A program made the translations under genes and the position numbers. The notes beneath the pieces were generated by a model, which was not told the DNA's origin, did not search any database, and saw only the letters and a program-made list of their open reading frames with translations. Below are positions 4,606 to 46,638 of a DNA stretch of 64,000 nucleotides, piece by piece. Numbering within the stretch: the stretch's first letter is position 1; each line of letters begins with the position of its first letter. The DNA is from a virus (lineage: Duplodnaviria; Caudoviricetes): the IMG/VR virus record IMGVR_UViG_3300029798_000001; one strand, given 5' to 3'.

Positions 4606-6756
4606 ATGAGTTTTGTAGATGCACTTTTTGATCGTGAACACGATCGTATCCATGTAGTTGAGCGCCGAGACGGTGAGCGGGTATACAAAGAATACCCTGC
4701 AAATTTTGTATTCTATTATGAAGACCCTCGTGGCAAGTTTCAAAGTATATTTGGCACACCGGTAAGTCGTTTTAGCTCACGTAACAATAAAGAATTCCGC
4801 AAAGAACTTAGGATACAATCAGGCAAGAAATTATTTGAATCTGATATCAATCCTGTATTTCGGTGCCTTGAAGAAAACTACAAAGGGCAAGACGGTCCAA
4901 AACTTAATGTAGCGTTCTTTGACATTGAGGTGGACTTTGATCCTGAGCGCGGATTTAGCCGCCCAGAGGATCCATTTAATGCTATCACTGCCATTTCAGT
5001 TTACCTACAGTGGTTAGAGCAAATGGTCACCTTGGTAATTCCACCTAAGCATATGAGCAAAGAAACAGCTCAAGAAATTGCCAACGAGTTTGAAAACACA
5101 ATCATATTCACTGAAGAAGGAGAACTGTTAAAAACATTCCTAGACTTAATCGAAGATGCAGATGCATTGTCGGGTTGGAACTCAGAAGGATTTGATATAC
5201 CGTACACTGTCAACCGTGTAACTCGTATACTAAGTAAAGATGATACCCGCAGGTTTTGCTTATGGAATCAATATCCCAAGAAGCGTACATTTGAACGCTT
5301 TGGTGCAGAAAACGAAACTTACGATTTGATTGGTCGTGTACATATGGATTATATGCAATTGTATCGAAAATATACATATGAAGAACGCCATAGTTACAGT
5401 TTAGATGCCATTGCTGAATATGAACTACAAGAAACTAAAACAGTGTTCGAAGGCACACTGGATCAATTATACAATCAAAACTTTAAAACATTTATTGAGT
5501 ATAATCGACAAGATACAATGATTCTTGCCAAGTTAGATAAGAAACTAAAATTTTTAGATCTAGCCAACACCTTGGCACATGAAAATACTGTGCTATTGCA
5601 AACTACTATGGGTGCCGTGGCTGTGACAGAACAGGCCATTATCAATGAGGCACACGAGCGTAGTATGGTTGTTCCTAATCGTAAGGAACGCTATTCGGAT
5701 GAAGATACACAAGCGGCCGGTGCCTATGTTGCTTATCCACGCAAGGGTATACATGAGTATGTAGGATCAATTGATATTAACTCACTATATCCAAGTGCTA
5801 TTCGTGCGCTTAATATGGGTCCAGAAACTATTGTGGGGCAACTCCGTCCTACAATGACCGATCGTTATATTGCCGATAAGATGCGTAGTGGAAGTAGTTT
5901 TGCCGCAGCGTGGGAAGGCCTGTTTGGATCATTAGAATATGAAGCTGTAATGGCCAGTGAGCGCGGCACAGAGATTACAGTAGATTGGCAAGGTGGTGAA
6001 GATTCTGTACACAGTGCGGCAGAAGTTTGGAAGATGATTTTTGATTCTAACCAACCATGGATGCTTAGTGCCAACGGTACAATCTTTACCTATGAAAAAG
6101 AAGCAATTATTCCGGGATTGTTAAAACGCTGGTACGCCGAGCGGAAAGAAATGCAGTCCAAACTTAAAGAATGTAAAAATGCAGAAGACGAAGAATATTG
6201 GGATAAACGACAACTCGTTAAAAAGATTAACCTTAACAGTCTCTATGGTGCTATCCTTAACCCTGGTTGCCGCTTTTTTGATAAGCGCATTGGACAATCT
6301 ACCACACTAACCGGTCGTGCTATCGCCAAGCACATGGACGCCTATGTAAATGAATGTATCACTGGCAAGTATGACCATGTAGGCGAATCAATTATTTACG
6401 GTGACAGTGTAACCGGCAATACTCTTATTAAGACTGATTCTGGAGAAATAGCTATTGAAGAATTATTTAGACAGACTCCTGAACATTGTATTATTGGTGA
6501 CAAGGAATATGCTACTGGAGCATTGGCCAAAGTTGTGGGATTTAATGCGTATGAAGATTCTCCTATAATGAGCAATATATCGTACGTAATGCGACACAAA
6601 ACAAAAAAGAAACTGTACAAAATTACGCTAGAAAATAATAAGTCAGTCACTGTAACCGAAGATCATAGTATAATGGTAGATCGTGACGGATTCCTAATGG
6701 AAGTAAAACCCAATGACATCTTGGGTAAAGATTTAATTATCAGTCTGAATACATAA
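4606..6756 (+). CDS. polB: Family B DNA polymerase, N-terminal part (3'-5' exonuclease + palm) fused to split intein IntN
   Basis: ExoI FDIEV, ExoII GWNSEGFD, ExoIII YNRQD; region II SIDINSLYPS; region III KKINLNSLYG; ends YGD then SVTG (intein). Confidence 0.95.
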   Translation: MSFVDALFDREHDRIHVVERRDGERVYKEYPANFVFYYEDPRGKFQSIFGTPVSRFSSRNNKEFRKELRIQSGKKLFESDINPVFRCLEENYKGQDGPKLNVAFFDIEVDFDPERGFSRPEDPFNAITAISVYLQWLEQMVTLVIPPKHMSKETAQEIANEFENTIIFTEEGELLKTFLDLIEDADALSGWNSEGFDIPYTVNRVTRILSKDDTRRFCLWNQYPKKRTFERFGAENETYDLIGRVHMDYMQLYRKYTYEERHSYSLDAIAEYELQETKTVFEGTLDQLYNQNFKTFIEYNRQDTMILAKLDKKLKFLDLANTLAHENTVLLQTTMGAVAVTEQAIINEAHERSMVVPNRKERYSDEDTQAAGAYVAYPRKGIHEYVGSIDINSLYPSAIRALNMGPETIVGQLRPTMTDRYIADKMRSGSSFAAAWEGLFGSLEYEAVMASERGTEITVDWQGGEDSVHSAAEVWKMIFDSNQPWMLSANGTIFTYEKEAIIPGLLKRWYAERKEMQSKLKECKNAEDEEYWDKRQLVKKINLNSLYGAILNPGCRFFDKRIGQSTTLTGRAIAKHMDAYVNECITGKYDHVGESIIYGDSVTGNTLIKTDSGEIAIEELFRQTPEHCIIGDKEYATGALAKVVGFNAYEDSPIMSNISYVMRHKTKKKLYKITLENNKSVTVTEDHSIMVDRDGFLMEVKPNDILGKDLIISLNT
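6406..6756 (+). mobile_element. Split intein, N-fragment (116 aa, Ser1)
   Basis: Block A SVTGNTLI directly after YGD; block B VTVTEDHS; ends at a TAA stop. Confidence 0.9.
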
Positions 6757-6760
6757 ATAC
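6751..6760 (+). promoter_or_regulatory. T4-like late promoter for the endonuclease, overlapping the IntN stop codon
   Basis: ACATAAATAC; the TAA at 6754-6756 is part of ATAAATA; AGGAG RBS follows. Confidence 0.55.
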
Positions 6761-6783
6761 TATGAAGATAGGAGTATCATCAT

Positions 6784-7743
6784 ATGCCAACATGTTTAGA
6801 GTGCGGGTATTCAGCCCCAAGATTACAGTGGACACACTTCAAATACAAATGTACCGGAAAATTCAAAAACGGTAATGAGTATATGTCCGCACACCCCGGT
6901 AGTGAGATAATAGATCCAGAATTAAAGAAAAAATACGGGTTTACACTTGACTCGGCTGTCAAAAAGTATGGTGCTGTGGAAGGTCAAAAACGATGGAATG
7001 AGTATTGTGATGCGCAGGCAACCACTAATACTTTTGAATACAAACATGAAAAATACGGTTGGACCCGTGAACAGTTTGACGAGTACAATTCATCAAGAGC
7101 AGTAACCATTGCAAACATGATCAAACGACATGGTGAAGAAATTGGAGTTGCTAAATGGCAAGAATATTGCGAACGACAAGGATATACCAATACCAAAGAA
7201 TATTTTATTGAAAAGTACGGTGCAATCATTGGCGTTAAAAAATATATTGAGGTTAACAAGAAAAAGAAAAACCCACACGACCCGGTGAGTATTTCTGAAA
7301 AATTAGGAATTACCTTGGACGAGGCGGTAGACATTATCTTGTCGAGAGAAAATTCTGGAAGAAGATATATTAGTAATCTTGAAGAAGAATTTACAAACAT
7401 GCTTGAAGATAAAGTAGGACCACTTGACTATACCTCAGCTAAACGACCATTTGGCAAATGGTCTCATTTATTGAATACCTATGTTGTATATGATATAAAA
7501 CACGGCAATTGCATTATTGAATTCAATGGTGATTACTGGCATGCTAATCCCAACATTTATGCTGGCACCGCTACAATAAGAGGTGTCCCGGCGGTTGATA
7601 TATGGCGCCAGAATGTGTTAAAATTACAAACAGCACAGGATTTGGAATTCAAAACCCTAGTGGTTTGGGAAACAGAATTTCGAAATGATAAAGTTGGAAC
7701 AATTAATAAGGTAGCAGAATGGATATTACAAGAACAACCGTAA
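6784..7743 (+). mobile_element. Free-standing Vsr-like (PD-(D/E)xK) homing endonuclease between the split polymerase halves
   Basis: C-terminal YDIK..IIEFNGDYWHANP...VVWE; N-terminal CxxC..H..C; internal repeats K[YH]G...G..[KR]W.EYC..Q..TNT.EY..EKYG. Confidence 0.8.
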
Positions 7744-8702
7744 AAAGTATTGATTGTCTCGGTGAGGTGGATGACTATGTGTATGATCTCAGTATAGAAG
7801 ATCAAGATCCTTATTTTTTTGCCAATGACATATTGGTGCATAATACCGACTCGTGTTATTTCACTGCATACCCTGTGTTGCAAAAAGAAATCGAAGCTGG
7901 TACAATGTCTTGGTCGAAAGAAATTGCGGTACAATTATATAACTCTATTGCCGACCAAGTTAATGATAGCTTTCCAGGATTTATGGAACAAGCATTTCAT
8001 GTACCTAGAGAAATGGGCGAAGTGATCAAAGGTGGGCGAGAGATTGTCGCAAGTAAAGGGCTGTTTATTACCAAGAAGCGGTATGCTGTATTGTATTATG
8101 ATAAAGAAAATAAGCGTGTAGATACCCACGGTAGTCCTGGTAAAGTAAAAGCCATGGGCCTTGATTTAAAAAGATCAGATACTCCCAAGGTTATTCAAGA
8201 ATTTTTAAGCGAGATTCTCGACGAGGTACTCACAGGCTCCACCAGAGATCAGGTTATTGAAAAGATCCGCGAATTTAAGTATATTTTTAAAGAGAGGCCG
8301 GGTTGGGAGAAGGGTAGTCCTAAGCGTGTAAACAACTTAACCAAATATGGTAAGGAAGAAGAAAGATTAGGCAAAGCCAATATGCCAGGACATGTCCGTG
8401 CTGCACTTAATTGGAATAATCTTCGCAGGATGAATGGCGACAAATATAGTTTACAGATTGTTGATGGCATGAAAACAATTGTATGTAAACTAAAATCTAA
8501 TCCACTTGGCTGGACTAGCATTGGTTACCCTACTGACGAAACACATTTGCCACAATGGTTTAAAGAGTTGCCGTTTGATGACACCGAAATGGAAGCCACT
8601 GTAGTTGATCAAAAGCTAGACAATTTATTAAGTGTATTAGAATGGGACTTGGCCAGTGCTACTAACACTAAAAATATTTTTCAAACATTGTTCGAGTGGT
8701 AA
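7719..8702 (+). CDS. polB: Split intein IntC (42 aa) fused to the DNA polymerase B C-terminal part
   Basis: YVYDLSIE (block F); ILVHN then TDSCYF (block G, Thr+1) restores YGDTDS; TKKRYA and KAMGLDLKRSD motifs. Confidence 0.93.
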   Translation: MDITRTTVKSIDCLGEVDDYVYDLSIEDQDPYFFANDILVHNTDSCYFTAYPVLQKEIEAGTMSWSKEIAVQLYNSIADQVNDSFPGFMEQAFHVPREMGEVIKGGREIVASKGLFITKKRYAVLYYDKENKRVDTHGSPGKVKAMGLDLKRSDTPKVIQEFLSEILDEVLTGSTRDQVIEKIREFKYIFKERPGWEKGSPKRVNNLTKYGKEEERLGKANMPGHVRAALNWNNLRRMNGDKYSLQIVDGMKTIVCKLKSNPLGWTSIGYPTDETHLPQWFKELPFDDTEMEATVVDQKLDNLLSVLEWDLASATNTKNIFQTLFEW

Positions 8703-14491: not shown

Positions 14492-14838
14492 TGAGAAATT
14501 GGTTAAGACAGAAATTAATTAATATATTAATAGACGATGGCTCAGAGCCCGAGAAGAATGCCCGGCAACGACCTGCCACAATAAATCGTGCAAATCGAGG
14601 TAGTGGTAGTATTAGTGTTTGCTTGGATAACGGAGTTGATGATAGCCCAAGTGGAATTGATCTTCCGGATCCTATTGTGTTTAAGGTACAGGCAGTATCT
14701 GGAGGAACAGTGGTAGAAACTAAGTGGTACGACTACAAAAAAGACGAGCAACGGGTTAAACTGCATATCATCACCCAAGAGGAAAACTTATCCGAATCTA
14801 TTGGTAAAATTGTAACTATGGAACTACTACAAAAATGA
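14491..14838 (+). CDS. Hypothetical protein
   Basis: ORF track; TAATG coupling to the upstream gene. Confidence 0.55.
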   Translation: MRNWLRQKLINILIDDGSEPEKNARQRPATINRANRGSGSISVCLDNGVDDSPSGIDLPDPIVFKVQAVSGGTVVETKWYDYKKDEQRVKLHIITQEENLSESIGKIVTMELLQK

Positions 14839-15278
14839 TACAAGAAGAACGCAACACCGTAGAAAGAGTTATAGCAGCTGCAGATAGGAAAATCTGGGTG
14901 ACTTTCAAGAAGGAAGGAATCCATCGTTATCCTGCTGCCGCGACAGATCCGTTATTATGCACCGCTGGTGAATATGATGTTAGCTTTTTGGCTAATCCGC
15001 ACAGACATATTTTCTGGTTTAAAGTTTGGATAGATGTATTTCATTCTAATAGAGATTTGGAATTTATTCAATTTAAGCGTTGGTTAGAGAGTTTATATAG
15101 TAAAGATATTTTACAATTAGATTTTAAAAGCGTAGAGATGATTGCCGATGACCTATATATACAAATAGCCGATCGCTATCCTAATCGTGCTGTAGTAATT
15201 GAAGTATCCGAAGACGGCGAGAACGGATGCTCCATTAGTTATAACCTTACTCGTCCAACACAATCAATTGTAATTTAA
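14835..15278 (+). CDS. dpdL: QueD-like T-fold protein, probable DpdL (CDG decarboxylase) type
   Basis: LANPHRHIF matches the LxxxHRHxF signature I recall for DpdL; C-terminal SEDGENG. Confidence 0.6.
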   Translation: MIQEERNTVERVIAAADRKIWVTFKKEGIHRYPAAATDPLLCTAGEYDVSFLANPHRHIFWFKVWIDVFHSNRDLEFIQFKRWLESLYSKDILQLDFKSVEMIADDLYIQIADRYPNRAVVIEVSEDGENGCSISYNLTRPTQSIVI

Positions 15279-23671: not shown

Positions 23672-23737
23672 ACCGGCCTTTACGGCGTCACCCCGGTATA
23701 CAAACTCTGCCGCCTATGCTATAATCTAACATAGGAG
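23672..23737 (+). promoter_or_regulatory. Candidate structured 5' leader (pseudoknot plus SD-sequestering hairpin)
   Basis: ACCGG/CCGGT stem; loop CGGCG can pair with TGCCG (23708-23712); CCTATG/CATAGG hairpin covers AGGAG. Confidence 0.45.
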
Positions 23738-23793
23738 AATATATTTAAAACTACCATAGTATGATAAATAAAGTTAGACTATGGAGAGTTGAA

Positions 23794-24642
23794 ATGTATT
23801 ATCTTATGATAAAAGAGATTGAACAAACAGGGTTAAAATACCTCTGTAAACGAAAACAATACAAAGACCCATTAGACCACATCAAATACAAGGGGTCCGG
23901 TAAACTTTGGAGACGCACTTTAAATGCTCATCCAGAGTATACACTAAAAACAACTGTATTAGGATTGTATGATAAAAACGACCTAGCAAAATATGGTCTA
24001 TATTATAGCAATCTATACAACATAGTTGAATCAAAAGAGTGGGCAAACTTGATGCCTGAAGTAGGAGCCGGCGGACAAACTCACAAAGGAACCCATCCAT
24101 ACAAGAATATTGAAACAGGTGCTATTGTGTATAGAACGGAATGCCCAGAGGGACACGAGCCATTCTTTAACACACAAAAAGAAACCAGAGTTATACACAA
24201 CCCATTGACAGGCGAGTCTAAAAAGGTCGAGCCAACTGCTATTACTCCAGAAGGGTGGGTAGATGGCGGTGTTAAAGGCAAATCATATGGACCAAAAAAA
24301 GGACAGACTAAAGTTTATCATAATGGCAAACATAAGATTTATATCAAACACGGAGATCCTGTTCCGGAAGGATTTGAGCCCGGTGTCCATTATACAGGAA
24401 CTACCAAAGGAAGAGTAGGGTGCCATAATCCACTTACTAAAGAAAAACGGTATATTGATAAAAATGATCTTGTCCCGGAAGGATTTGTAGTAGGGCTCAC
24501 TCCGACTACTGGCAAAAAAATAAGCACTCCGTTTGGAGTATTTAATAGCGTAACTGAGTGTATGGCAAATACAAAGTTGACAAGATACGCTATTGAGTGT
24601 AAAATTAAAACAGAAAACAATTGGTTTTATATAAAGGATTAA
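23794..24642 (+). mobile_element. Seg-like GIY-YIG homing endonuclease
   Basis: YYLMIKE..GLKYLC, YKGSGKLW, WAN; C-terminal P[ED]G[WF]..G repeats and HTH; own GATAAATA promoter and GGAG RBS. Confidence 0.7.
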
Positions 24643-24643
24643 A

Positions 24644-25141
24644 ATGACATACCCAGCAATTCAAAAAAAGTATATGAGCACAAAAGAATATAAAGATGCC
24701 TTTCCTGTGGCATATCGCCAATGGCGAGATGATGGCAAATGTTCTATCGTTCACGGCTATGCGTTAACCGTTCGATTCTTTTTTGAATCGGATGAGTTAG
24801 ATGTCCGGAACTGGGTTCAAGATTACGGCGGACTTCGCCCACTTAAAGAGCAATTAGAAGAATGGTTTGATCATCGTTTATTAGTAGCCATTGACGACCC
24901 TCATAAAGATTTATTAGTAGCATTACACGATGCCGGTATTGCTAAGATTACAGAAGTAGAAAAGACCGGATGCGAAGGTATTGCTGACTTCTTATACGAA
25001 TATGTAAACACTATCTTCTTACCAAGTTATGGTAAAGCAGAAGCAGAGCGTATTTGGTGTTGTCGAGTAGAGGTTCGTGAAACACAAAGCAATATGGCAA
25101 TGCGGCAAGGGCATCGAGAGTGGAATGAATTCACAGATTAA
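24644..25141 (+). CDS. queD: 6-carboxy-5,6,7,8-tetrahydropterin synthase
   Basis: C..VHGY, DYGGL, FDHRLLV..DDP, GCEG, VEVRET. Confidence 0.85.
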   Translation: MTYPAIQKKYMSTKEYKDAFPVAYRQWRDDGKCSIVHGYALTVRFFFESDELDVRNWVQDYGGLRPLKEQLEEWFDHRLLVAIDDPHKDLLVALHDAGIAKITEVEKTGCEGIADFLYEYVNTIFLPSYGKAEAERIWCCRVEVRETQSNMAMRQGHREWNEFTD

Positions 25142-25150: not shown

Positions 25151-25375
25151 ATGAACGAGAAGATTAATGGACTTTGGGACAAGGCTGTTACCTTGGTTGA
25201 ACAAGAACCAGATGGGGATTGGTCGTTAGATACAATTAAAGACAAGTTCGCCGAGTTGATTGTTAAAGAATGTATTGGTATTTTAGAACCGAAAAGTAGA
25301 TATATGGGCGAAGGTCCCGAAGTATTAAAAGATAAGATTAGACAGATTAACCGACATTTCGGAGTTGAAGAATGA
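25151..25375 (+). CDS. Small protein of the FAELIV..C...HFGVEE paralog family
   Basis: Same motifs as ORFs at 57648, 58910, 60411 and 61591. Confidence 0.75.
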   Translation: MNEKINGLWDKAVTLVEQEPDGDWSLDTIKDKFAELIVKECIGILEPKSRYMGEGPEVLKDKIRQINRHFGVEE

Positions 25376-25470
25376 AGATATGGTGCTACTGTGTTGAAGT
25401 TCGTGAAACACAAAGCAATATGGCATTTCGTGAAAGCCACAGAGAGTGGTGCGAAGATTTATTTGCTTAA
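25372..25470 (+). pseudogene. Duplicated 3' end of queD (32-codon mini-ORF)
   Basis: MKIWCYCVEVRETQSNMAFRESHREW versus QueD IWCCRVEVRETQSNMAMRQGHREW; 27-nt identity 25399-25425 = 25073-25099. Confidence 0.8.
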
Positions 25471-36696: not shown

Positions 36697-36774
36697 GGGC
36701 GGTTAGCATAGTAGGTTAATGCCGGCGACTCATAATCGTCAGAGTGATAGGTTCAAATCCTTCACCGCCCACCA
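36697..36774 (+). tRNA. tRNA-Met/Ile2 (CAT)
   Basis: GGGCGGT/ACCGCCC acceptor, CT-CAT-AA loop, TTCAAAT, ACCA; early promoter at 36659-36687. Confidence 0.85.
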
Positions 36775-37081
36775 AATAAGGTAAATACTAGACCGTGGAA
36801 CAGCAAAAGAAACCCGTTAACCAGTATTACTATTCCGAAAAAGAATGGGCAAGATTGGGTTGTGGCCCGTTGCCCGACGAGCGTGATCGTTCTAAATTAC
36901 TAGATGCTCATGCAAAAGGTAATCCAAAGGTTGACAATAATATAGTAAAAGGATATAATTAACGATCATGATATGGTTAGCTATTTTTATTATCGGCGCT
37001 GTTGCAATGTATTTGTTAATTGAGCTAAAAGATTGGCTCGACAATGATCAGTAGTTAAAATTTAAAAGGAAGTATAGTAAA

Positions 37082-37285
37082 ATGGCATTTGGTAAAGTAA
37101 AATGGTTTAACGACGCAAAAGGTTTTGGTTTTATTACCCCCGATGGTGGTGGTGAAGATTTGTTTGCACATTTCTCAGCAATCGGTGGAAGTGGATTTAA
37201 AACTCTTAAAGAGAATCAAGCGGTACAGTTTGATGTAACGCAAGGCCCAAAAGGCAAACAAGCATCGAATATTATACCTGCGTAA
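37082..37285 (+). CDS. cspA: Cold-shock protein
   Basis: [31 protein letters not shown]. Confidence 0.97.
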
Positions 37286-37382
37286 GCTGGTACTAACAGA
37301 ATTGTTGTAACGTGGGCGCAGGGGTTAAATCCTGCGGACCATTTAGGTTGATTTTTAATTCGTTTTCTGCTACAATAGTAGT

Positions 37383-37994
37383 ATGAGAGTAAAGAATTTT
37401 GAGGTCGATTTAGATTCTGTAGAAGATTGCCAAAAGCTAATTAATCGACTTAAAAGTAATATAGGCGAACTTCGAATATTAACACACGGCTCTAAAAAGC
37501 AAAGAGTCCGTTCTGTATTTGAAGCTTGTCAAAAGATATACAATACCGATATCAGCGACTTGTATCGTCATTTAGATTTGGATCCAAACCCGATTTATTA
37601 TGTCTATACACATTCGGAACCTTCTAAAAAGATTGCTATAGGCAAAAACGGTATCAGTACTTTTGCGGCGACATTAGGAATGGAGTTAATTCCGTTCTAT
37701 GTAGGCAAGGGTGTTGGCGATAGAGCTTACGATTTAAACCGCAACGAGACGCATCGTAAAGTAAGACAAAAACTTCAGCAGTTCGGGCAGGAAGTATCTG
37801 TTAAAATATTAAAATCTGGACTTACTGAGATGGGAGCATTAATATTAGAATCTAAATTAATCGATATGTTCGGACTAATAGCTTCGGGCGGTAAATTAGT
37901 AAATTTGGACGAAGGTGTAAATAGTAAAGAACGACGCTTAAAATATAAAGACGAGCTTCGTGAGATAAGTATGTTATATAAGAATTCTGTCTGA
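37383..37994 (+). mobile_element. GIY-YIG endonuclease adjacent to tmRNA
   Basis: YYVY...PFYVGKG..DR...E..LI..FG....LVN; own early promoter at 37348-37377. Confidence 0.7.
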
Positions 37995-38335
37995 AGTTAG
38001 ACTGAAAGCTATGCAAGACGCGGAGTGGTGCCCGCCACCTCCACCACAAGCATACTGTGATGCGTTACCCAGCGTGAAGTTAAGAGGGTGAAAACAGTAT
38101 GCTTTTGATGGGGGTGTATAATCCTTTCGATTGTGTAGGAAGTAAGAATAATTAGGAATCGGTAGGCGATGACCGTATAAATCAAGCAAATCTCGTAAAT
38201 GCAAACGCAAATACAGGCGAAGTAACTGTTTCGGGCAAGGGCGTTAAGTTCTCTGCTCGTACAGCGAAAGCCGAATCTTTCGCAGTTTAATCACCGCGAT
38301 TGCGGAGTTATCCGTAGAAACAGAAAATAACAGAT
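37981..38335 (+). ncRNA. ssrA: Circularly permuted (two-piece) tmRNA
   Basis: Acceptor piece ends CACCTCC-ACCA (38046); hairpin spacer; coding piece starts GGGGGTG (38110) giving G3:U70; CTATGCAA pairs with TTGTGTAG; tag ORF 38201-38290 ANANTGEVTVSGKGVKFSARTAKAESFAV. Confidence 0.85.
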
Positions 38336-38360
38336 AGGGGCTTCGGCCCCTATTCTTTTG
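38334..38360 (+). terminator. Intrinsic terminator
   Basis: TAGGGG-CTTCGG-CCCCTA followed by a T-rich tail. Confidence 0.8.
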
Positions 38361-38446
38361 ACAAAATAATACAAAAATAAGACTTTTCTATTGCTCTGCA
38401 ACGACAAATACTATATACTAGTAGTATTAATCACGAAAGGCATATT

Positions 38447-38785
38447 ATGAAATTAATCACAGCAGTAATCAAGCCCTTTAAACTAGACGAAGTTCGAGAA
38501 GGTCTAGCCGAGGTTGGCATCACTGGGTTAACTGTAACAGAAGTCAAAGGCGTTGGGCGGCAAAAAGGCCATACCGAGTTGTATCGCGGTGCTGAGTATG
38601 TAGTAGATTTTTTACCCAAGGTTAAAGTCGAAGCAATCGTTGAGGAGGGCTTAGTTGATCGTGCTATTGAGGCCATTATCAAATCTTCCAAGACCGGTAA
38701 AATTGGTGACGGTAAGATTTGGGTTACCGCAATTGAAGGCCTGGTTCGTATTCGTACAGGTGAATCTGGAAAGGATGCAGTATAA
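38447..38785 (+). CDS. glnK: Nitrogen regulatory protein PII (GlnK)
   Basis: MKLITAVIKPFKLDEV, GRQKGHTELYRGAEY, GKIGDGKI. Confidence 0.97.
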   Translation: MKLITAVIKPFKLDEVREGLAEVGITGLTVTEVKGVGRQKGHTELYRGAEYVVDFLPKVKVEAIVEEGLVDRAIEAIIKSSKTGKIGDGKIWVTAIEGLVRIRTGESGKDAV

Positions 38786-40161
38786 TGAAAAAATTACTAA
38801 CAGCATTAGCATTGTTCGCAGTATCGGCAGTGGCATTGGCCGCAGATGCTCCGGTGCCTAACCCGGGTAATACCGCTTGGGTATTGACTAGTACAATCTT
38901 AGTAACACTCATGGCTATTCCAGGCCTTGCATTGTTCTATGGTGGACTAGTTCGTAGTAAAAATATGTTGAGTGTGCTCATGCAGACCTTTGTAGTATTT
39001 GCTCTCATGGGTGTTCTTTGGACGGTGTTTGGTTACACACTAGCATTTACAGCAGGTACACCATTTATTGGTAGTATTGACAAGTTGTTCTTGTTGGGTA
39101 TTACTCCGGACTCTGTAGCGGCAACATTTAGTAAAGGTGTTGTTATTCCTGAGTTTAGTTTTGTAGCCTTTCAACTTACCTTTGCCGCAATCACTCCGGC
39201 ACTGATTATTGGTGCGTTTGCCGAGCGTGTTAAGTTTGGCGCCTTGTTGGCATTTATTACCATTTGGTTTATCTTTGCTTACTTGCCCATGGCACACATG
39301 GTTTGGTATTGGGACGGCCCTGATGCTATTACCAGTGCCGCCACATTAGAAGCAGTCACTAATTCAGCAGGCTGGTTGTGGGCCAAGGGTGCTTTAGACT
39401 TTGCCGGAGGTACAGTAGTTCATATCAATGCTGGTATTGCTGGCTTGGTTGGTGCTATCATGTTAGGCCGTCGTGTTGGTCTTGGTAAAGAAAATATGAG
39501 TCCACACTCATTGACACTTACTATGGTTGGTGCCGCATTGTTGTGGGTAGGTTGGTTTGGCTTCAACGCTGGATCTAATCTCGAAGCCACAGGTGTTGCT
39601 GCTCTTGCAGTTGTAAACACAATGGTTGCCACAGCAATGGCTGTATTAAGTTGGTCTGGAGTTGAGAAGTTGTTCAAAGGTAAAGCAAGTATGTTAGGGG
39701 CCGCATCTGGTGCTGTAGCAGGCTTGGTTGCGATTACTCCTGCTGCTGGTTTTGTAGGACCGATTGGTGCGTTAGTAATTGGGTTGGTTGTTAGTCCGAT
39801 TTGTTTTTTCTTTGTTGACAAAGTTAAACGCACATTTGGGTACGATGACGCACTTGATGTATTTGGTATTCACGGTGTAGGTGGTATTGTTGGTGCTATC
39901 CTCACTGGAGTGTTTGTTGCTCCATACCTAGGTGGTACTGGTGTATACGACTATGTGGCCAACAAGGTAGCAGACTTCGATATGGTGGCTCAACTTACAG
40001 CTCAATTATGGGCAGTGGGTACAGCCGTAGTGTTAAGCGGTGTAGTATCCGTAGTAGCATTCAAGTTAATTGACCTAGTCATTGGCCTGCGTGTTCCAGA
40101 AGAAGATGAACGAGAAGGGTTGGACATCACTTCACACGGTGAAACAGCGTATCACAATTAA
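38785..40161 (+). CDS. amtB: Ammonium transporter
   Basis: FYGGLVR, AHMVW, DFAGGTVVH, GWFGFNAGS, DDALDVFGIHG; twin His retained. Confidence 0.97.
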   Translation: MKKLLTALALFAVSAVALAADAPVPNPGNTAWVLTSTILVTLMAIPGLALFYGGLVRSKNMLSVLMQTFVVFALMGVLWTVFGYTLAFTAGTPFIGSIDKLFLLGITPDSVAATFSKGVVIPEFSFVAFQLTFAAITPALIIGAFAERVKFGALLAFITIWFIFAYLPMAHMVWYWDGPDAITSAATLEAVTNSAGWLWAKGALDFAGGTVVHINAGIAGLVGAIMLGRRVGLGKENMSPHSLTLTMVGAALLWVGWFGFNAGSNLEATGVAALAVVNTMVATAMAVLSWSGVEKLFKGKASMLGAASGAVAGLVAITPAAGFVGPIGALVIGLVVSPICFFFVDKVKRTFGYDDALDVFGIHGVGGIVGAILTGVFVAPYLGGTGVYDYVANKVADFDMVAQLTAQLWAVGTAVVLSGVVSVVAFKLIDLVIGLRVPEEDEREGLDITSHGETAYHN

Positions 40162-40176
40162 AGTAGTCGTTAATGA

Positions 40177-40205
40177 TAAAAAGGTGGCATTTCTGCCACC
40201 TTTTT
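40177..40205 (+). terminator. Intrinsic terminator
   Basis: AAAAGGTGGC-ATTTCT-GCCACCTTTTT. Confidence 0.8.
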
Positions 40206-40283
40206 ATCGTGGGTCAGTAAAAACCACTAAATATTATTCACGGGACATATATCTATGCCCTATCTTAAAAGGAAATAAATCAA

Positions 40284-41027
40284 ATGAAAAAAGTACTATT
40301 AGCAATTCTTGCTCTGGCTGGCATTACCGCGGCTCACGCTCAGGTAACTGGCAATTTAGGGTTAGCTTCTGACTACCGCTTCCGTGGTATCAGTCAAAGC
40401 CAAAATGCTCCTGCTGTTCAGGGCGGCGTTGACTATGCTCACTCTAGTGGTTTGTATATTGGTAACTGGAACTCATCAGTTTCTAGCCAAGTATATACAA
40501 ATGGCGCTGGTGTTGAGTCTGACTTGTACGCAGGTTGGAAAAAAGATATTTACAAAGGTCTGACATTGGATGTTGGTTCTTATAACTATTTCTATCCTCG
40601 TGCTACAGCAGCAAAAACTGGTTCAAACTTTGATACTTATGAAGCATTCTTAGGTTTAGGGTATGGTCCTTTAGCTGTTAAGTATAGCCAAACACTGGGC
40701 AACGGTTACTTCGGTACTGTTAATGCCAAAAACTCAAACTACACAGGTGCTGATGTAAATCAATCCTTTGAGCCACTAAGTGATACGTTGAAAGACTTGA
40801 GCTTCCTAGCTCACTATGGTCATACTTCGGTTGCTAATAGTTCTAACTTAAACTACAACGACATGAATGTTGGTCTAGGTTATGTATTGCCAAAAGATTG
40901 GAATATTGCTGCCAGGTACTATACTAATAGTTCAATGACCAGCACTTTCCAAAATGCTAACAATGTAAATGGACAGAAACTTTACAAAAATGCAGTTGTC
41001 GCAACATTGACAAAAACATTTGAATAA
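40284..41027 (+). CDS. TorF-family (TIGR02001-like) putative porin
   Basis: Signal peptide; SDYRFRGISQS..PAVQGG.DY.H.SG.Y.G.W.S, E.DLY.G; terminal KTFE. Confidence 0.85.
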   Translation: MKKVLLAILALAGITAAHAQVTGNLGLASDYRFRGISQSQNAPAVQGGVDYAHSSGLYIGNWNSSVSSQVYTNGAGVESDLYAGWKKDIYKGLTLDVGSYNYFYPRATAAKTGSNFDTYEAFLGLGYGPLAVKYSQTLGNGYFGTVNAKNSNYTGADVNQSFEPLSDTLKDLSFLAHYGHTSVANSSNLNYNDMNVGLGYVLPKDWNIAARYYTNSSMTSTFQNANNVNGQKLYKNAVVATLTKTFE

Positions 41028-41043
41028 TTATTCAATGTAACCA

Positions 41044-41069
41044 AAAAGGGCTCTTCGGAGCCTTTTTTT
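41044..41069 (+). terminator. Intrinsic terminator
   Basis: AAAAGGGCTC-TTCG-GAGCCTTTTTTT. Confidence 0.85.
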
Positions 41070-41149
41070 ACGGCTGGTTGACCTTATACACTAACTAGTA
41101 TATACTGAGCACTTAGTTAAAAATATTTTAGGAAATTAGCAAATATAGG

Positions 41150-41804
41150 GGTTGACAAAGTATAAATAACCCTACATATGAAACGAGCAATAATTCTAGG
41201 ATGTAGTCACGCAGCCGGTACCGAAATAGATAATGGCCGTACCTGTAGTTACCCAGTTAAAATTGCAGAACAGCTAGGATACACTCCGGAAAATTATGCC
41301 ATTGCCGGTGGCAGTAATGATGCGATGTTTCGCATATATGAAGAACAACACCCAAGTCTTGATAGTGCTGATATAATTATAGCCTGTTGGTCTGGCTACA
41401 ATCGTACAGAGATTTGGAATGATAAAATCAAAAACTGGCAAGCTCTTGCTCCCGGTAAAACAGATGTGGCGCCAAAGGAATACTTAGACTATCAACAGCA
41501 ATGGGTCACATACCATACCAATGATCATATTGGTCGTTTAAACAAAATTAAAAATATTATTGCGTTAAACACATTGGCTCAACAACAACATGTTCCGGTT
41601 GTTAATGTTGACAGTTTCTGGCCTGTACATAATTTTATATGGCCCAACTCGATTCAGTGGCCAATGACGGTTGACTTTTGGGAGTGGTGCAGTTATAATA
41701 ACTATCCAAAGACAGCGTGGGGACACTTTTTTGAACCTGCCCATAAAGAATTCGCAGAAATTGTTGTAAAAAGTGTAAAACCCAGGTTGACAAAGTATAA
41801 ATAA
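41150..41804 (+). repeat. 20-bp direct repeat of a dual early/late promoter flanking one gene
   Basis: GGTTGACAAAGTATAAATAA at 41150-41169 and 41785-41804. Confidence 0.9.
41178..41804 (+). CDS. SGNH-like hypothetical protein
   Basis: LGCSH, AIAGGSN, terminal GHF...AH. Confidence 0.55.
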   Translation: MKRAIILGCSHAAGTEIDNGRTCSYPVKIAEQLGYTPENYAIAGGSNDAMFRIYEEQHPSLDSADIIIACWSGYNRTEIWNDKIKNWQALAPGKTDVAPKEYLDYQQQWVTYHTNDHIGRLNKIKNIIALNTLAQQQHVPVVNVDSFWPVHNFIWPNSIQWPMTVDFWEWCSYNNYPKTAWGHFFEPAHKEFAEIVVKSVKPRLTKYK

Positions 41805-41824
41805 ACCTATATAATAACACTATT

Positions 41825-42037
41825 ATGAAACATTTAAACACTCATTCTTATTGTGTAGCGATAACAGGGAAACAGCCCGCGCCAGCCAATTGGCTCAGCA
41901 TCGAGGCATTATCCTTTACAAGTATTCGCGGCACAGATATTAATAGAATGGATTCAGAGGGTTGGGATGATTAGATAATAACATTATAATTTAATCACAC
42001 AACCCTGGAACTAAACACTCCGGGGTTTTTTATTTTA
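41825..42037 (+). promoter_or_regulatory. Candidate transcription attenuator: 49-aa leader, antiterminator and terminator
   Basis: Leader ORF 41825-41974; AGGGTT..TGATTA pairs with TAATCA..AACCCT, which overlaps terminator CCCTGGA/TCCGGGG + T-run. Confidence 0.65.
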
Positions 42038-42047
42038 AGGAAAGGAT

Positions 42048-42227
42048 TTATGCAGACAGATTATACAAAATTGAACGATCGTATTGTGAAGCAGGCGTAT
42101 GAAGTAGCTAACTTGACACTGAGTGAAGAACTCAAGACGAGACTGTTTCAGAATAAGATTGATCGTGCAGTTGCTATACTAAGGGCAAGAGAATTAAGCC
42201 CAGCGTTTAGTAGAAGCGAGTACTAAG
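42048..42227 (+). CDS. Small hypothetical protein MQTDYTKLNDRIVKQ...
   Basis: AAGGA RBS; 59 codons open; first ORF after the attenuator. Confidence 0.45.
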
Positions 42228-42420
42228 ATCAAGTAGTAAGTGTTATAGGAAACGAGATCCTTAACTCACTATAAAAAGTTTAAATGGGCGGCCAGTATGA
42301 TGAATCTCCTTGTGTGGAGTGAAAAACTACTGCGTATTAAAGCACATAGTATAGCGACTAAGCTATCACAGAAATGTGTAACTATGTGCTTTAATACACG
42401 CATTCCAAAGAGTGCGTTAT

Positions 42421-42509
42421 GGGCGCTGTTCTCACCGGGGGACTGTAAATCCCTTGCCTTAATATGGTGAGTGGTCGGCGATTAGGTTCAATTCCTTCAG
42501 TGCCCACCA
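42421..42509 (+). tRNA. Atypical tRNA-Tyr(GTA)-like RNA lacking a normally placed D-arm
   Basis: GGGCGCT/AGTGCCC acceptor, 9-nt linker, GGGGA-CTGTAAA-TCCCT arm, AGTGGT segment after the variable arm, TTCAATT loop, ACCA. Confidence 0.6.
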
Positions 42510-42517
42510 TTATATTC

Positions 42518-42562
42518 ATTGACGAGTTGAATGAGTAGGTTCGAATCCTACTGTCAGCACCA
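42518..42562 (+). pseudogene. tRNA minihelix/remnant (acceptor + T arm only)
   Basis: TTGACG/TGTCAG, GTAGG-TTCGAAT-CCTAC, ACCA. Confidence 0.5.
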
Positions 42563-42568
42563 AATATT

Positions 42569-42643
42569 GCCCTATTATCCTTAATGGTAGAGGTCCTGTT
42601 TTGTAATCAGGGTGTGGAAGTTCGATTCTTTCATGGGGCACCA
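42569..42643 (+). tRNA. tRNA-Thr(TGT)
   Basis: Cloverleaf, TT-TGT-AA loop, ACCA. Confidence 0.9.
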
Positions 42644-42773
42644 GATTATTGTTGTTTTTAGCAACAGAATGAATCGGTTGACCCAAAATGGGTAATAGCA
42701 TATAATAGTTGTATATTAAGTAATAAAGTTCATTAACAATTTGAGTAGAATATAAGCACCCTGGGAAGGGTCA

Positions 42774-43008
42774 CCATATTGAAGCATATTACTAACTATG
42801 GCTGGAGACCGACGGGCCTGTACGGTAGTTGATAGTATGTTTCAATATGGTGAGTCGGACAAACGTGTATGGACAACCGGGTAACTGGGGCTAATCCTAC
42901 ACACCGACACCATATTGAAGCATACTGCACTGAGTCGCTATCAGGCAGGAACATAGGGTTTGATCACCCGGGTAGGTTCGAATCCTACTGTAGTGTGTTT
43001 CAATATGG
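42774..43008 (+). repeat. Two copies of a long spacer stem CCATATTGAAGCATA.../...TGTTTCAATATGG
   Basis: 42774-42850 and 42910-43008; the second encloses a tRNA-like fold with a GTAGG-TTCGAAT-CCTAC T arm. Confidence 0.8.
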
Positions 43009-43084
43009 TAAGGTGGCCGAGGGGACCAAGGCAAGTGACTGCAAATCTCTACAACCGGGGGTTCGAATCCCTCTCTTACCTCCA
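43007..43084 (+). tRNA. tRNA-Cys(GCA)
   Basis: CT-GCA-AA loop, TTCGAAT, TCCA. Confidence 0.9.
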
Positions 43085-43199
43085 GAGCATTCCCGATCTA
43101 CTGAACTGGAAAACGGACAGTAAGTGGGAATCAAGTCCGGAATGCAAGCGCGGACCTAGGCACTAAAAAGGCCCTAGGCAACATGCTTCCCATAAATTT

Positions 43200-43276
43200 G
43201 GTTTGTTAGTCGAGTTGGTTAAGACGCCTGCCTGTCACGCAGGAGACCAGGGGTTCGAGTCCCCTACAGACCGCCA
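43200..43276 (+). tRNA. tRNA-Asp(GTC)
   Basis: CT-GTC-AC loop, GCCA. Confidence 0.92.
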
Positions 43277-43280
43277 AATT

Positions 43281-43775
43281 GCTCTCATCGTCTAGAGGCC
43301 TAGGACATCACCCTCAAGTGGTTGACAGCAGGGATAAATACTGTTTATGAGAGCTAAAGATTTTGTAGATATGCAACCGCAAACAAATCTACATGATTTG
43401 ACCCTTGCAGCATGGGTTTTTTATTCTACTACACCCGACAATGTTGACATTGACTTAAAATCTGAACCAATTGATAAATTTATTCCGCAGGCAAAAGGAA
43501 TATGGAATCATTTTAAGAAACAAATCGGCGAGAAGAGAAAAGTAGAGAGTATGATATCAACAATAAAAGCCAATATACCTTTCTCTCTTCCTGTATATGT
43601 TAAATTTAATGATCCTACTTTATACGTAGTAGAAGGAAGGCATCGATTATGCGCTTACTGGTTATCTGGAGCAAAAACTATTCCTGTTGCTTACGTGAAA
43701 CCTATAAGTCAAGATGGATCAAACTTAGTTAAAGCACCGCCTCTGGCACGCTAGGTTCGATCCCTGAGACCGCCA
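43281..43775 (+). pseudogene. tRNA-Glu-type gene split by an inserted ORF
   Basis: 5' half GCTCTCA-TCGTCTAGAGGCCTAGGACA-TCACC (43281-43315); 3' half AGGTTCGATCCC-TGAGACC-GCCA (to 43775). Confidence 0.65.
43347..43754 (+). CDS. ParB/Sulfiredoxin-like domain protein with an MRAKDF N-terminus
   Basis: YVVEGRHRL.AY...G...IPV motif; GATAAATA late promoter. Confidence 0.65.
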   Translation: MRAKDFVDMQPQTNLHDLTLAAWVFYSTTPDNVDIDLKSEPIDKFIPQAKGIWNHFKKQIGEKRKVESMISTIKANIPFSLPVYVKFNDPTLYVVEGRHRLCAYWLSGAKTIPVAYVKPISQDGSNLVKAPPLAR

Positions 43776-43784
43776 AAGTTTTAT

Positions 43785-43859
43785 ACAGCCATCGTCTAAC
43801 GGTTAGGACACCTGGTTTTCATCCAGGCAATCGGAGTTCGATTCTCCGTGGCTGTACCA
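43785..43859 (+). tRNA. tRNA-Glu(TTC)
   Basis: TT-TTC-AT loop, ACCA. Confidence 0.92.
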
Positions 43860-43869
43860 GTTTTACAAT

Positions 43870-43945
43870 CGCAGGGAGGGTCCGGTCACCAGCGGGGTCT
43901 CATAAGCCTTTGCCGTCCTTGGTTCAAATCCAAGCCCTGCAACCA
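43870..43945 (+). tRNA. Initiator tRNA-fMet(CAT)
   Basis: C1:A72 mismatch, G-rich anticodon stem, CT-CAT-AA. Confidence 0.8.
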
Positions 43946-43951
43946 AACAAT

Positions 43952-44027
43952 TCCGCAGTAGCTCAGTTGGTAGAGCGCAAAACTGTTAATTTTGATGTCC
44001 GAGGTTCGAGACCTCGCTGTGGAGCCA
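43952..44027 (+). tRNA. tRNA-Asn(GTT)
   Basis: CT-GTT-AA loop, GCCA. Confidence 0.92.
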
Positions 44028-44034
44028 AAACAAA

Positions 44035-44122
44035 GGAAGGTTGGCAGAGTGGTCGATTGCGTCAGTCTTGAAAACTGAAGGCTGTAACAGGTCCGTGAGT
44101 TCGAATCTCACACTTTCCTCCA
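44035..44122 (+). tRNA. tRNA-Ser(TGA)
   Basis: CT-TGA-AA loop, long variable arm. Confidence 0.92.
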
Positions 44123-44254
44123 GTATAGACCTCTAGGAGCCGGGTCCGGCGGTTAAGCTCTTAACCTAGTAAAATAAACAAGAGTGAGTTCTGCCAGTAA
44201 CTTTCAGTAGGATAAAAGTGTAGCTTGCTACTACTTCACTGGCAACTAATTTAA

Positions 44255-44341
44255 GGAGAGTTGGCCGAGCGGTAAGGCAACAGATTGCTAATCTGTCATT
44301 GGGTAACCGGTGGATAGGTTCGATTCCTATACTCTCCACCA
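44255..44341 (+). tRNA. tRNA-Ser(GCT)
   Basis: TT-GCT-AA loop, long variable arm. Confidence 0.92.
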
Positions 44342-44346
44342 GTAGT

Positions 44347-44420
44347 GCGGGTATGATGAAAAGGTATCCTGAATCCTTGCCAAGGATTATTTGAGAGTTC
44401 GATTCTCTCTACCCGCTCCA
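44347..44420 (+). tRNA. tRNA-Gly(GCC)
   Basis: TT-GCC-AA loop, TCCA. Confidence 0.9.
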
Positions 44421-44426
44421 AACAAC

Positions 44427-44504
44427 GGGTCTGTATGCCGCTTGGCTTCGAACCAAGAGAAAGCTAATGGATACATGCAGGTTCGACCCCTGTCAGACCC
44501 TCCA
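44427..44504 (+). tRNA. Atypical tRNA-Arg(TCG)-like RNA lacking a normally placed D-arm
   Basis: GGGTCTG/CAGACCC acceptor, 7-nt linker, CTTGG-CTTCGAA-CCAAG arm, AGCTAATGGAT segment, T arm, TCCA. Confidence 0.6.
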
Positions 44505-44507
44505 AGT

Positions 44508-44683
44508 TTTGTAAGTGTAGATGTTGAGAAAGTACAGTCCGCAAGACTGTATGAGAGGACGGTACAAGCCCGACCAAATGATAGCTACTCAAGTATCAAC
44601 TATCACTACGTACCTCTGTACCGGGCGCCCTAGTATTAACGGTTAAAATGATAGCGAATGAGTGAGGCGCTATTACTTACAAA
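44508..44683 (+). ncRNA. Candidate ncRNA enclosed by a TTTGTAAGT/ACTTACAAA stem
   Basis: Terminal 9-bp stem; internal hairpin TACAGTC-CGCAA-GACTGTA. Confidence 0.4.
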
Positions 44684-44692
44684 TTAATCAAT

Positions 44693-44894
44693 ATCCCTCC
44701 GTAAAGGATGTAGTAAGGAGCTCTCAGTTCCCTGTATGGTGAAGTAGTAGTTGATCCGAATCGCTCCTTGGTCGGAGTAGATGGTGATACTAAACGCTTC
44801 GTAAACTAAGAAAGTAAAGTCTAACCAACTGCACAATCTTAATACATATAAAGCTCTCCCGAATAACAGTGGTGAAAATCCACAAGGGATGCCA
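44693..44894 (+). ncRNA. Candidate ~200-nt RNA with tRNA-like termini
   Basis: ATCCCT/AGGGAT acceptor-like stem, GTGG-TGAAAAT-CCAC T-like arm, GCCA end. Confidence 0.5.
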
Positions 44895-44895
44895 C

Positions 44896-44974
44896 ACCCG
44901 GTTAGCTCAGTTGGTTTAGTAGCATTCGCTTGATAAGCGAAAGGTCCCTAGTTCGAGTCTAGGACCGGGTACCA
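44896..44974 (+). tRNA. tRNA-Ile(GAT)
   Basis: TT-GAT-AA loop, ACCA. Confidence 0.92.
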
Positions 44975-44981
44975 GTATTAT

Positions 44982-45055
44982 GAGTCTCAAGTGTTACGGT
45001 AGCACATCAGCCTCCAAAGCTGAGGGCCGGGGTTCGACTCCCTGGAGATTCGCCA
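44982..45055 (+). tRNA. tRNA-Trp(CCA)
   Basis: CT-CCA-AA loop, GCCA. Confidence 0.92.
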
Positions 45056-45061
45056 GTCAAT

Positions 45062-45110
45062 GGCGTGGGTAGCAAGGAAAGATAGGTTAAGCCCTAGACC
45101 TGCGTCGCCA
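45062..45110 (+). pseudogene. tRNA minihelix/remnant
   Basis: GGCGTGGGT/ACCTGCGTC stem, TAGG-TTAAGC-CCTA arm, GCCA. Confidence 0.45.
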
Positions 45111-45132
45111 AATTAACTTAAGAAAGAACCAA

Positions 45133-45606
45133 ATGAAGTTCAATATTCCACACATAACACAATTTATAGAAGCGCAAGGTCCAAACACTCGTATCTATAT
45201 TGGTGTGGATTCAGAACGTGTTCGCGGTCATGATAAGCAATGGCAAGCGATATACACTGCGGCTATTGTTGTACATATTAATGGTAACAACGGCTGTAAG
45301 TTATTTGGTGAGGTTACTCGTGAACGAGACTACGACCGAGTCGATAAGCCTAATACTCGCTTGATGACCGAAGTGTTCAAGGTAAGCGAACTGTATTTAA
45401 AACTTGCAGAAGTCTTAGAAGGTCGTGCTGTTGAGGTTCATCTTGATCTGAATCCAGACGAGCATCACGCTAGCTCTAATGTGGTGGCACAGGCTATTGG
45501 ATACATCCGCGGCACTTGTAATGTAGAGCCATTGGTTAAACCAAATGGATTTGCCGCAAGTTATGCTGCTGATAGAATGAGAGGTTTGCAGGTTGCTAAC
45601 GGGTAG
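45133..45606 (+). CDS. RNase H-like YkuK/DUF458-family protein
   Basis: IYIGVDS, RLMTEV, EVHLDLN, VKP..FAASYAAD. Confidence 0.75.
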   Translation: MKFNIPHITQFIEAQGPNTRIYIGVDSERVRGHDKQWQAIYTAAIVVHINGNNGCKLFGEVTRERDYDRVDKPNTRLMTEVFKVSELYLKLAEVLEGRAVEVHLDLNPDEHHASSNVVAQAIGYIRGTCNVEPLVKPNGFAASYAADRMRGLQVANG

Positions 45607-45665
45607 ACGCATTTTAATATTTTAATGCGTCTACCAATCATAAATAAACATAACAGGAGAGTATT

Positions 45666-46286
45666 ATGTTATGCGACTATGGTTGTAGTAAAGAAGCTAA
45701 GTTTACCCTTAAAAACGGAAAAAACTGTTGTAGTAAACGCCCGGCTGGATGCGAAGTGTTAAAGAAAATCAATGCCGATAAAGTAGCATTATCGCACAAA
45801 GAAGGCAGGCACGGGTATACTTACAATCCCAAAAGCAATTGGGCAAAAGGAAAAACCAAACTCGATGATAATAGAATTGGTAGTAGCTATAATCCAGATA
45901 CTCTATTTTCTTATGGTGAAAAGAACTTAGGCTCTATTGTTAGAAAACAAACTCTTATTAAAGAGCGTGGTCATAAGTGCGAATGTTGTAAATTAGAATT
46001 ATGGTTGGATACTCCTATTACCTTAGAACTCGATCATATTGACGGTGATAACAAAAATAATGTCAGAGACAATCTGAGACTATTGTGCCCTAATTGTCAT
46101 TCTAAAACTCCAACTTGGAGGAAGAGAAAGGCACCCGGCGGCAATTCCAAACATAGTGAAGATGCAATGTTAGTTGCAATTAAACAATCGGCTAATATGA
46201 ACGAAGTATTAAAAAGGTTAAATTTAAAGTGGGGTAGCTCTAGCACAATTGCAAGATTGATGTTAAAATATAATTTGAACTTTTAG
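45666..46286 (+). mobile_element. HNH homing endonuclease within the tRNA array
   Basis: CECC..ELDHIDGD..NN...NLRLLCPNCH; CATAAATA promoter; 11-bp hairpin upstream. Confidence 0.85.
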
Positions 46287-46291
46287 TAATT

Positions 46292-46377
46292 GGGGGAGTG
46301 ATGAAATTGGTAGACTTCCGGTCCTTAGAAGTCCGGGTCCTATGGGCGTGTCGGTTCGAGTCCGACCTTCCCCACCA
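46292..46377 (+). tRNA. tRNA-Leu(TAG)
   Basis: CT-TAG-AA loop, variable arm, ACCA. Confidence 0.88.
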
Positions 46378-46384
46378 TAAACAA

Positions 46385-46459
46385 GGGCCGTTAGCTTAAT
46401 GGTAAAGCGGAGAACTCATAATTCTAGGAGTGCTAGTTCAATTCTAGCACGGCCCACCA
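46385..46459 (+). tRNA. tRNA-Ile2/Met(CAT)
   Basis: CT-CAT-AA loop, ACCA. Confidence 0.85.
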
Positions 46460-46468
46460 AGTAGTAAT

Positions 46469-46553: not shown

Positions 46554-46554
46554 T

Positions 46555-46628: not shown

Positions 46629-46638
46629 TTTTAAATTT

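Follow-up and report, generated by a model that had tools for sequence, protein, structure and literature searches.

A putative phage-specific riboswitch leader of queD, apparently cut off from its gene by an endonuclease-queD cassette

The described RNA that comes closest to the leader reported here is the preQ1-I riboswitch (Rfam RF00522). In preQ1-I switches (types I-III) the ligand pocket has a G-C floor, a specificity C located 5' of the P1 3' strand and an A-rich L3, and every class I preQ1 switch acts as an OFF switch in the same pathway (PMC11625349). An RNA able to bind reduced pterins has been described as THF-II (PMC6800512), and riboswitches of phages are, according to the literature searched, rare and copies of bacterial classes, e.g. 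glutamine (PMC9004378). Phage leader structures that are bound by protein are known from T4 gene 32 (PMC535899, PMC3014915), and T4 endonucleases carry a late promoter inside the hairpin that hides their ribosome binding site (RBS; PMC2988022).

We analysed a stretch of 64,000 nucleotides (the window) that is part of the genome of a large tailed phage encoding FolE (18297), QueD (24644) and QueE (28756), and identified an uncatalogued riboswitch candidate upstream of queD; the leader, cassette and queD features given below are all on the plus strand. The P1 helix of the leader (23672-23737) is formed by ACCGG (23672-76) and CCGGT (23693-97), and its closing pair G23676-C23693 is the would-be floor of a pocket. 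L1 (23677-23683) has A, C or U, never G, at position 6, followed by C7, an invariant U8 and a variable linker. P2, the pseudoknot helix (23684-23714), pairs GGCG (23684-87) with CGCC (23711-14) and, beyond a U23688.C23710 mismatch, CA (23689-90) with UG (23708-09). L2 consists of two bases (23691-23692), of which C23692 lies directly 5' of the P1 3' strand, and L3 (23698-23707) of ten bases, A-rich and with a terminal YUC. An anti-SD hairpin P3, CCTATG (23713-18) with CATAGG (23730-35), shares 23713-14 with P2 and covers the Shine-Dalgarno (SD) sequence AGGAG (23733-37). An earlier note on this DNA had described both P1 and this hairpin, and both are present in the sequence, the three outer P1 pairs covarying in relatives. 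The pseudoknot partner it had proposed, TGCCG, was rejected: this register is paired at 37-58% per position versus 79-90% for GGCG/CGCC among the 268 copies listed, and the loop pairs with 23708-23714 instead. Behind the strong SD there is, as stated earlier, no start codon; ATG, GTG and TTG are absent and only ATA, ATA and ATT occur (23739-43), while the queD ATG (24644) is located 907 nt downstream of the SD, in agreement with the distance of about 900 nt given before. The motif occurs as a single copy within the 64-kb window. When folded alone as a single sequence the leader was no more stable than shuffled sequences (z -0.6), and Rfam searches of the window, at the gathering threshold as well as with E values up to 10, gave no match, nor did those of seven other loci with E values up to 1, so that the case rests on relatives.

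Three pattern scans of viral contigs returned at least 357 matches, including at least 268 distinct cores with queD downstream and at least 241 with queD within 60 nt; the sequences counted are related, and the counts here and below are not independent events. The scan pattern fixed several motif positions, with the outer three P1 pairs and U8 not among them. These three pairs were all paired in 317 of the 357 viral matches listed versus 7 of the 120 bacterial chance matches listed, and U8 was kept in all 268 copies listed though absent from the pattern. When the pattern was altered, as a control, to have G at position 6, it found 13 matches, none with a paired P1 or with queD, which also gives the chance rate. 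The floor G-C pair and the junction C were fixed in the pattern, yet they are kept too in copies gathered by protein similarity, two of which (L725 and L730) show covariation of the fourth P1 pair. The CA/UG extension of P2 beyond the mismatch is A-U in 227 and G-C in 41 of the 268 copies listed, without exception. Among 71 diverse copies 91% of cells were paired, compared to 68% when shuffled and 36-50% when slid, and both-sided changes occurred at nine of twelve helix pairs; in P2 alone, such changes affect six of seven pairs and 86% are paired as against 36-50% in slid controls, G-U pairs being present. Covariation, which the earlier note had set as a test, was thus found in both helices, among the 268 copies listed as well as the 71 diverse copies, and by sequence comparison the leader is a real, covarying H-type pseudoknot. 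P1 pair 3 also covaries with positions in L3, which may indicate a base triple and is confounded with the -35 box and with subfamily. A minimal motif of about 40 nt with a P1 of 3-4 bp and an L3 of 7 nt was seen 60 nt before queD at L665, L671, L678 and about 20 related loci.

QueD, as matched to the QueD of the window, was found downstream in 328 of 331 listed viral matches with a good P1 and enough DNA, and two of the remaining three precede more distant PTPS-family genes. Among 80 viral loci chosen for the similarity of their QueD, the leader is present in about 50, nearly always at the start codon, and many phage queD genes are without it. The genes behind it belong to at least six types of the PTPS family, with 29-69% identity to the QueD of the window and one of them unalignable, and each of five phages of 236-382 kb contains one motif copy per genome. 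The earlier note held that the leader had belonged to queD and named association with queD in endonuclease-free genomes as a condition. This association holds, the leader sitting on the queD translation start in such relatives, and we consider it almost certain that in these relatives the leader is a structured cis-regulator of queD. A stop-codon readthrough signal was considered and rejected, since most copies follow promoters and not a stop at a fixed distance. In about 4% of copies the RBS behind the leader is used by another gene, and the leader is a gene-insertion hot spot. Unrelated genes sit on the leader's RBS with queD second at L008, L033, L083, L119, L229, L238 and L302; L701 has the leader twice, before an inserted 236-aa gene (632-676) and before queD (1429-1473); and at L237 and L413 two different QueD-family genes follow one leader in tandem.

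Outside viral contigs, a covariance model found no match in about 155 bacterial genomes (150 sampled from one proteobacterial phylum and four others), the positive control being matched in five of five phages. The bacterial pattern scan was loose, its listed matches were chance matches, none of them with queD downstream, and it is silent on true absence. Among cultured phages there was no DNA match, and the motif is missing at the three nearest queD loci. No description of the motif was found in the literature searched, and it is unmentioned in the text of a catalogue of viral structured RNAs (PMC10690425), among whose 10,000 candidates it may sit.

Promoter-like sequences are found just 5' of P1, namely a late-type TAAATA in 66 of 107 copies listed of one subfamily (background 0.6%) and a sigma-70-type promoter in 63 of 155 others listed, which places the leader in the 5' UTR. 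A second sigma-70-type promoter overlaps the fold itself. In the window it reads TATACA, 17 nt, TG-n-TATAAT (23697-23725; 10/12 consensus), with the TATAAT (23720-25) in the hairpin loop. The earlier note had cautioned that this TATAAT could simply be a promoter, and in one subfamily a promoter does appear to be there, as a second overlapping element and not as an alternative to the RNA fold. This subfamily comprises 109 of the 268 copies listed; the hairpin loop provides a good -10 (TATAAT in 65, TAAAAT in 22) and, at proper spacing, L3 provides a good -35, which has at most two mismatches in 105 of these 109 copies. The same 109 copies mostly have the late-type TAAATA and almost never a sigma-70 promoter 5' of P1, the reverse being true for the other 159. 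The simplest reading would be that the locus gives rise to two transcripts: a short early RNA with its start in the loop, lacking the switch, and a long late RNA that carries the switch. No plus-strand terminator was found for the leader. One might argue from the good promoter in these 109 copies that only DNA is conserved, i.e. a promoter with an inverted-repeat operator and no RNA function, and the promoter may indeed account for retention of the window's copy. However, the overlapping promoter leaves the covariation unexplained: the two crossing helices covary with G-U pairs included, P1 and L3 shorten together in a marine variant, the spacer length varies from 5 to 12 nt, and 159 copies listed keep the fold without that promoter. 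We therefore regard conservation at the DNA level alone as extremely improbable and largely refuted.

The leader shares with preQ1-I a small H-type pseudoknot, a 5-bp P1 closed by G-C, an A-rich L3, a C directly 5' of the P1 3' strand (here preceded by U or A in 85%), a downstream gene of the 7-deazaguanine pathway and translational control. It differs from preQ1-I at two of the residues that read the ligand. In preQ1-I the conserved U6 reads the N9 edge of the ligand, whereas A, C and U are all common here (C in the window), and this variability of a ligand contact counts against the reading that we prefer below. Likewise, an L3 adenine next to P2 (A30 in the Can switch) reads N3/N2 in preQ1-I, where the leader, in its inferred register, has YUC. 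Further differences are a long covarying P2 with the U.C mismatch, control of queD, occurrence only in phages and the lack of an Rfam match. In preQ1-I, formation of the pseudoknot hides the SD or promotes termination (OFF), while here the SD lies outside P2 and would be freed (ON). By sequence and predicted architecture the leader is preQ1-I-like and not a member of that class, in keeping with the earlier statement that it does not match known preQ1 classes. THF-II (folE motif; PMC6800512) is similar in being a small RNA for reduced pterins that acts on translation of a neighbouring pathway step; it differs in fold, in its gene (folE), in being bacterial and in its proposed OFF logic, and the leader has no match to the THF-II family in Rfam.

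The wiring of the switch was addressed in 233 leaders, in which the P2 3' strand has an alternative pairing partner in the SD, in the start codon or in both. In nested folding under constraints, with the pseudoknot itself outside the score, opening of the RBS cost 8.4 kcal/mol with P1 only and 4.6 kcal/mol with the pseudoknot strands held, and holding these strands saved more than 1 kcal/mol in 90% of the leaders; a control with shuffled P2 strand (7.2 versus 8.4 kcal/mol) recovers much of the effect. Subfamilies differ in whether the masking pairing is anti-SD or anti-AUG. Since the same P2 3' strand also forms the helix that hides the SD or AUG, formation of the pseudoknot would free the RBS, and we infer that the pseudoknot is the ON state of queD translation. 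A true riboswitch with OFF logic or with a product as ligand (CPH4, CDG or host preQ0/preQ1), missed by the folding test, could be proposed instead, as feedback is the usual logic of biosynthetic genes and the class I preQ1 switches of this pathway are all OFF (PMC11625349). We regard this as quite improbable: the SD is never inside P2, the SD/AUG helix has P2 as a competitor in each of the subfamilies that were examined, and none of the five phages tested, all of which have FolE and a TGT-like gene, encodes QueC above cut-off. The absence of QueC in these five genomes also disfavours preQ0 or preQ1 as a phage-made ligand.

The leader combines the general features of riboswitches, i.e. a covarying structure, conserved unpaired bases, a position in 5' UTRs of genes serving a single metabolic function and an expression platform, and is probably a small-molecule riboswitch. 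QueD uses dihydroneopterin triphosphate, which FolE produces from GTP and which is shared with folate synthesis. A guanine-faced small molecule would bind at the P1/P2 junction, be read by the C before the P1 3' strand and stabilise the pseudoknot, switching QueD translation ON. The likeliest ligand would lie upstream of or beside QueD, such as dihydroneopterin triphosphate, the reduced pterin/folate pool or GTP/guanine, and pterin would then leave host folate synthesis for 7-deazaguanine DNA modification only when plentiful. We see an even chance that the leader switches queD ON in response to a precursor that is a pterin or resembles guanine.

As the main rival, the pseudoknot could serve as an operator of translation to which a protein binds (QueD, another phage protein or a host factor), similar to the T4 gp32 leader. 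There is phage precedent for such leader structures (PMC535899, PMC3014915), the motif was found only in phages, and T-fold proteins bind guanine- and pterin-like rings. The T4 gene 32 pseudoknot resembles the leader as a phage 5'-leader structure over the translation of its own gene, but it is protein-bound and repressive and its sequence diverges even among close phages, while here the same nucleotides are kept before QueD families that are about 30% identical or unalignable. The floor pair, the junction C and the A-rich L3 are furthermore features of a small-molecule pocket, and no shared sequence or family match to the gene 32 pseudoknot was found. We therefore consider a protein-bound operator unlikely. 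Our preferred reading, to which we assign a probability of roughly 55%, is a phage-specific queD leader switch that is turned ON by a guanine-faced ligand and that in this genome was cut off by an endonuclease-queD cassette.

The gene between leader and queD (ATG 23794, stop 24642) encodes a free-standing endonuclease of 282 aa with GIY-YIG fold, as indicated by a structure model and its comparison to I-TevI. The model (pLDDT 88) matched the catalytic domain of I-TevI with Z 8.4 (rmsd 2.7, 81 aligned) and, with its C-terminal module, the DNA-binding domain of I-TevI with Z 6.7, and a BFVD match to GIY-YIG had an E value of 3e-11; sequence searches of Pfam, PHROGs and PDB gave no match and Foldseek against PDB only weak ones. 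Residues Y16, Y32, H46, G68, N85 and E89 are invariant, and 55 near-full-length homologues were found. Judged by the model, the ORF is a Seg-like, putatively homing GIY-YIG endonuclease with predicted nuclease activity. Its RBS (23783-88) and ATG are covered by a hairpin (23738-23800; z -5.2, 0 of 200 shuffles) with a late-promoter-like TAAATA (23765-70) in the loop, which corroborates the earlier description of a Seg-like gene with its own promoter and RBS at this position. The hairpin can be extended by pairing of 23730-36 with 23802-08, so that the old SD can pair into its base, and an RBS-hiding hairpin is kept in distant cassettes. As in T4 Seg endonucleases (PMC2988022), a GIY-YIG-fold, free-standing enzyme stands beside its putative target gene, has a late promoter in the RBS-hiding hairpin and contains the promoter of the downstream gene within its ORF, as segG contains gene 32 promoters. 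Unlike in Seg, the position here is the 5' end of queD with an own queD start, graded remnants and an RNA switch cut off, and the protein is without Pfam or PHROG match.

The present queD (24644-25141; PF01242, E 3e-16) is preceded by a sigma-70-type promoter within the endonuclease gene (TTGACA, 17 nt, TAAAAT; 24577-24605; 11/12), 38 nt before queD, and by an unstructured RBS AAGGA (24634-38). Nine of the 16 cassette loci have such an embedded promoter (10-11/12, 38-48 nt before the queD ATG), against a background of 8 at most elsewhere in the gene, and the cassette lies directly 5' of queD in nine of nine families looked up, with differing upstream genes. Most likely queD is now expressed from this predicted promoter and the fresh open RBS. 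Behind queD follow a 74-aa ORF without family match (25151-25375) and a remnant (25378-25470) made up of the final 31 codons of an older queD allele, recognisable by a 72-nt direct repeat of the queD end. This remnant is 84% identical to the C-terminus of another QueD type, and its best DNA matches are queD genes behind the same leader subfamily. In related loci, graded 5' remnants of the old queD precede the cassette, with 46 codons in L744 (intact leader), 40 in L746, about 32 in L747, 11 in L748 and 5 in L064, and L567 also belongs to this series; the genome of the window has none. The remnants end near the conserved RQWRADSHC codons, which may suggest that the endonuclease target is located there. 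An endonuclease-queD cassette would have replaced most of the old queD, leaving leader and SD in front and the 31 codons behind, although the 3' remnant at 25378-25470 may derive from a second event. In L002 the endonuclease gene is reduced to its final ~30 nt (2970-3000), followed by a 96%-identical queD, i.e. the cassette was lost again. At L175 an unrelated GIY-YIG-type gene has likewise left the front of an old queD upstream, and at L003 and L004 a different nuclease-like gene resembling the ORF at 6784 of the window precedes the closest QueD alleles, without leader.

Graded remnants, embedded promoter and the constant position of the cassette 5' of queD agree with the earlier proposal that a homing endonuclease orphaned the leader, and very probably the leader is functionally orphaned from queD in this genome. 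The orphan in L576 has a broken, chimeric P1, a state absent from the 328 normal matches listed, and that in L569 an extra base in L1; these few cases hint at relaxed selection. That the copy in the window is intact means either that it was orphaned recently or that selection still maintains it for some other role. The switch might also be relayed instead of orphaned, if ribosomes at the old SD melted the endonuclease hairpin and translational coupling continued to queD. In four close relatives (L001, L566, L572 and L576) a TTG located 7 nt behind the SD opens an ORF of four codons whose end falls in the hairpin arm, and the remnant ORF of L744 runs into the hairpin. When 23725-60 is covered, the endonuclease RBS can be opened for 5-9 instead of 18-21 kcal/mol, and the stop codon of the endonuclease gene and the ATG of queD are 1 nt apart. 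However, the window has TTA (23745-47) at the place of the TTG, and L576 has the TTG yet a broken P1. In both switch states the old SD is paired into the endonuclease hairpin and the endonuclease RBS stays buried. A separate promoter and an unstructured RBS serve queD, and many cassettes are without any leader. We thus attribute a very low probability to such a relay and a small chance to relayed control in the four TTG relatives.

Returning to a switch cut off by the cassette, a more far-reaching version can be offered tentatively, and we would sooner doubt than assert it: a new phage-only class on a preQ1-I-like scaffold in which a pterin or guanine-nucleotide precursor turns queD ON and gates viral DNA modification, and whose leader a specialised family of homing endonucleases has cut off or captured again and again, with the endonuclease of some relatives possibly itself under metabolite control. 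If true, a phage-confined ON class with an altered pocket would mean that viruses read host pterin/purine pools in timing DNA modification. The leader core is a 45-nt RNA that can be probed directly, the cassettes that cut off the switch provide a natural knock-out series of queD without leader, and the locus illustrates how selfish endonucleases rewire control of a host gene by bringing their own promoter.

Elsewhere in the window we found a TGT-like gene (10413) and a T-fold ORF (14835-15278) with the LxxxHRHxF signature described for DpdL; together with FolE, QueD, QueE and no QueC, this suggests a 7-deazaguanine route without preQ0. A region with 26 tRNA genes (36697-49492) includes a permuted tmRNA (37983-38290). 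The DNA polymerase B gene (4606-8702) is in two pieces (4606-6756 and 7719-8702) with intein-like ends and a 319-aa endonuclease-like ORF between them, which by analogy looks like the fractured-gene arrangement of PMC2677866.
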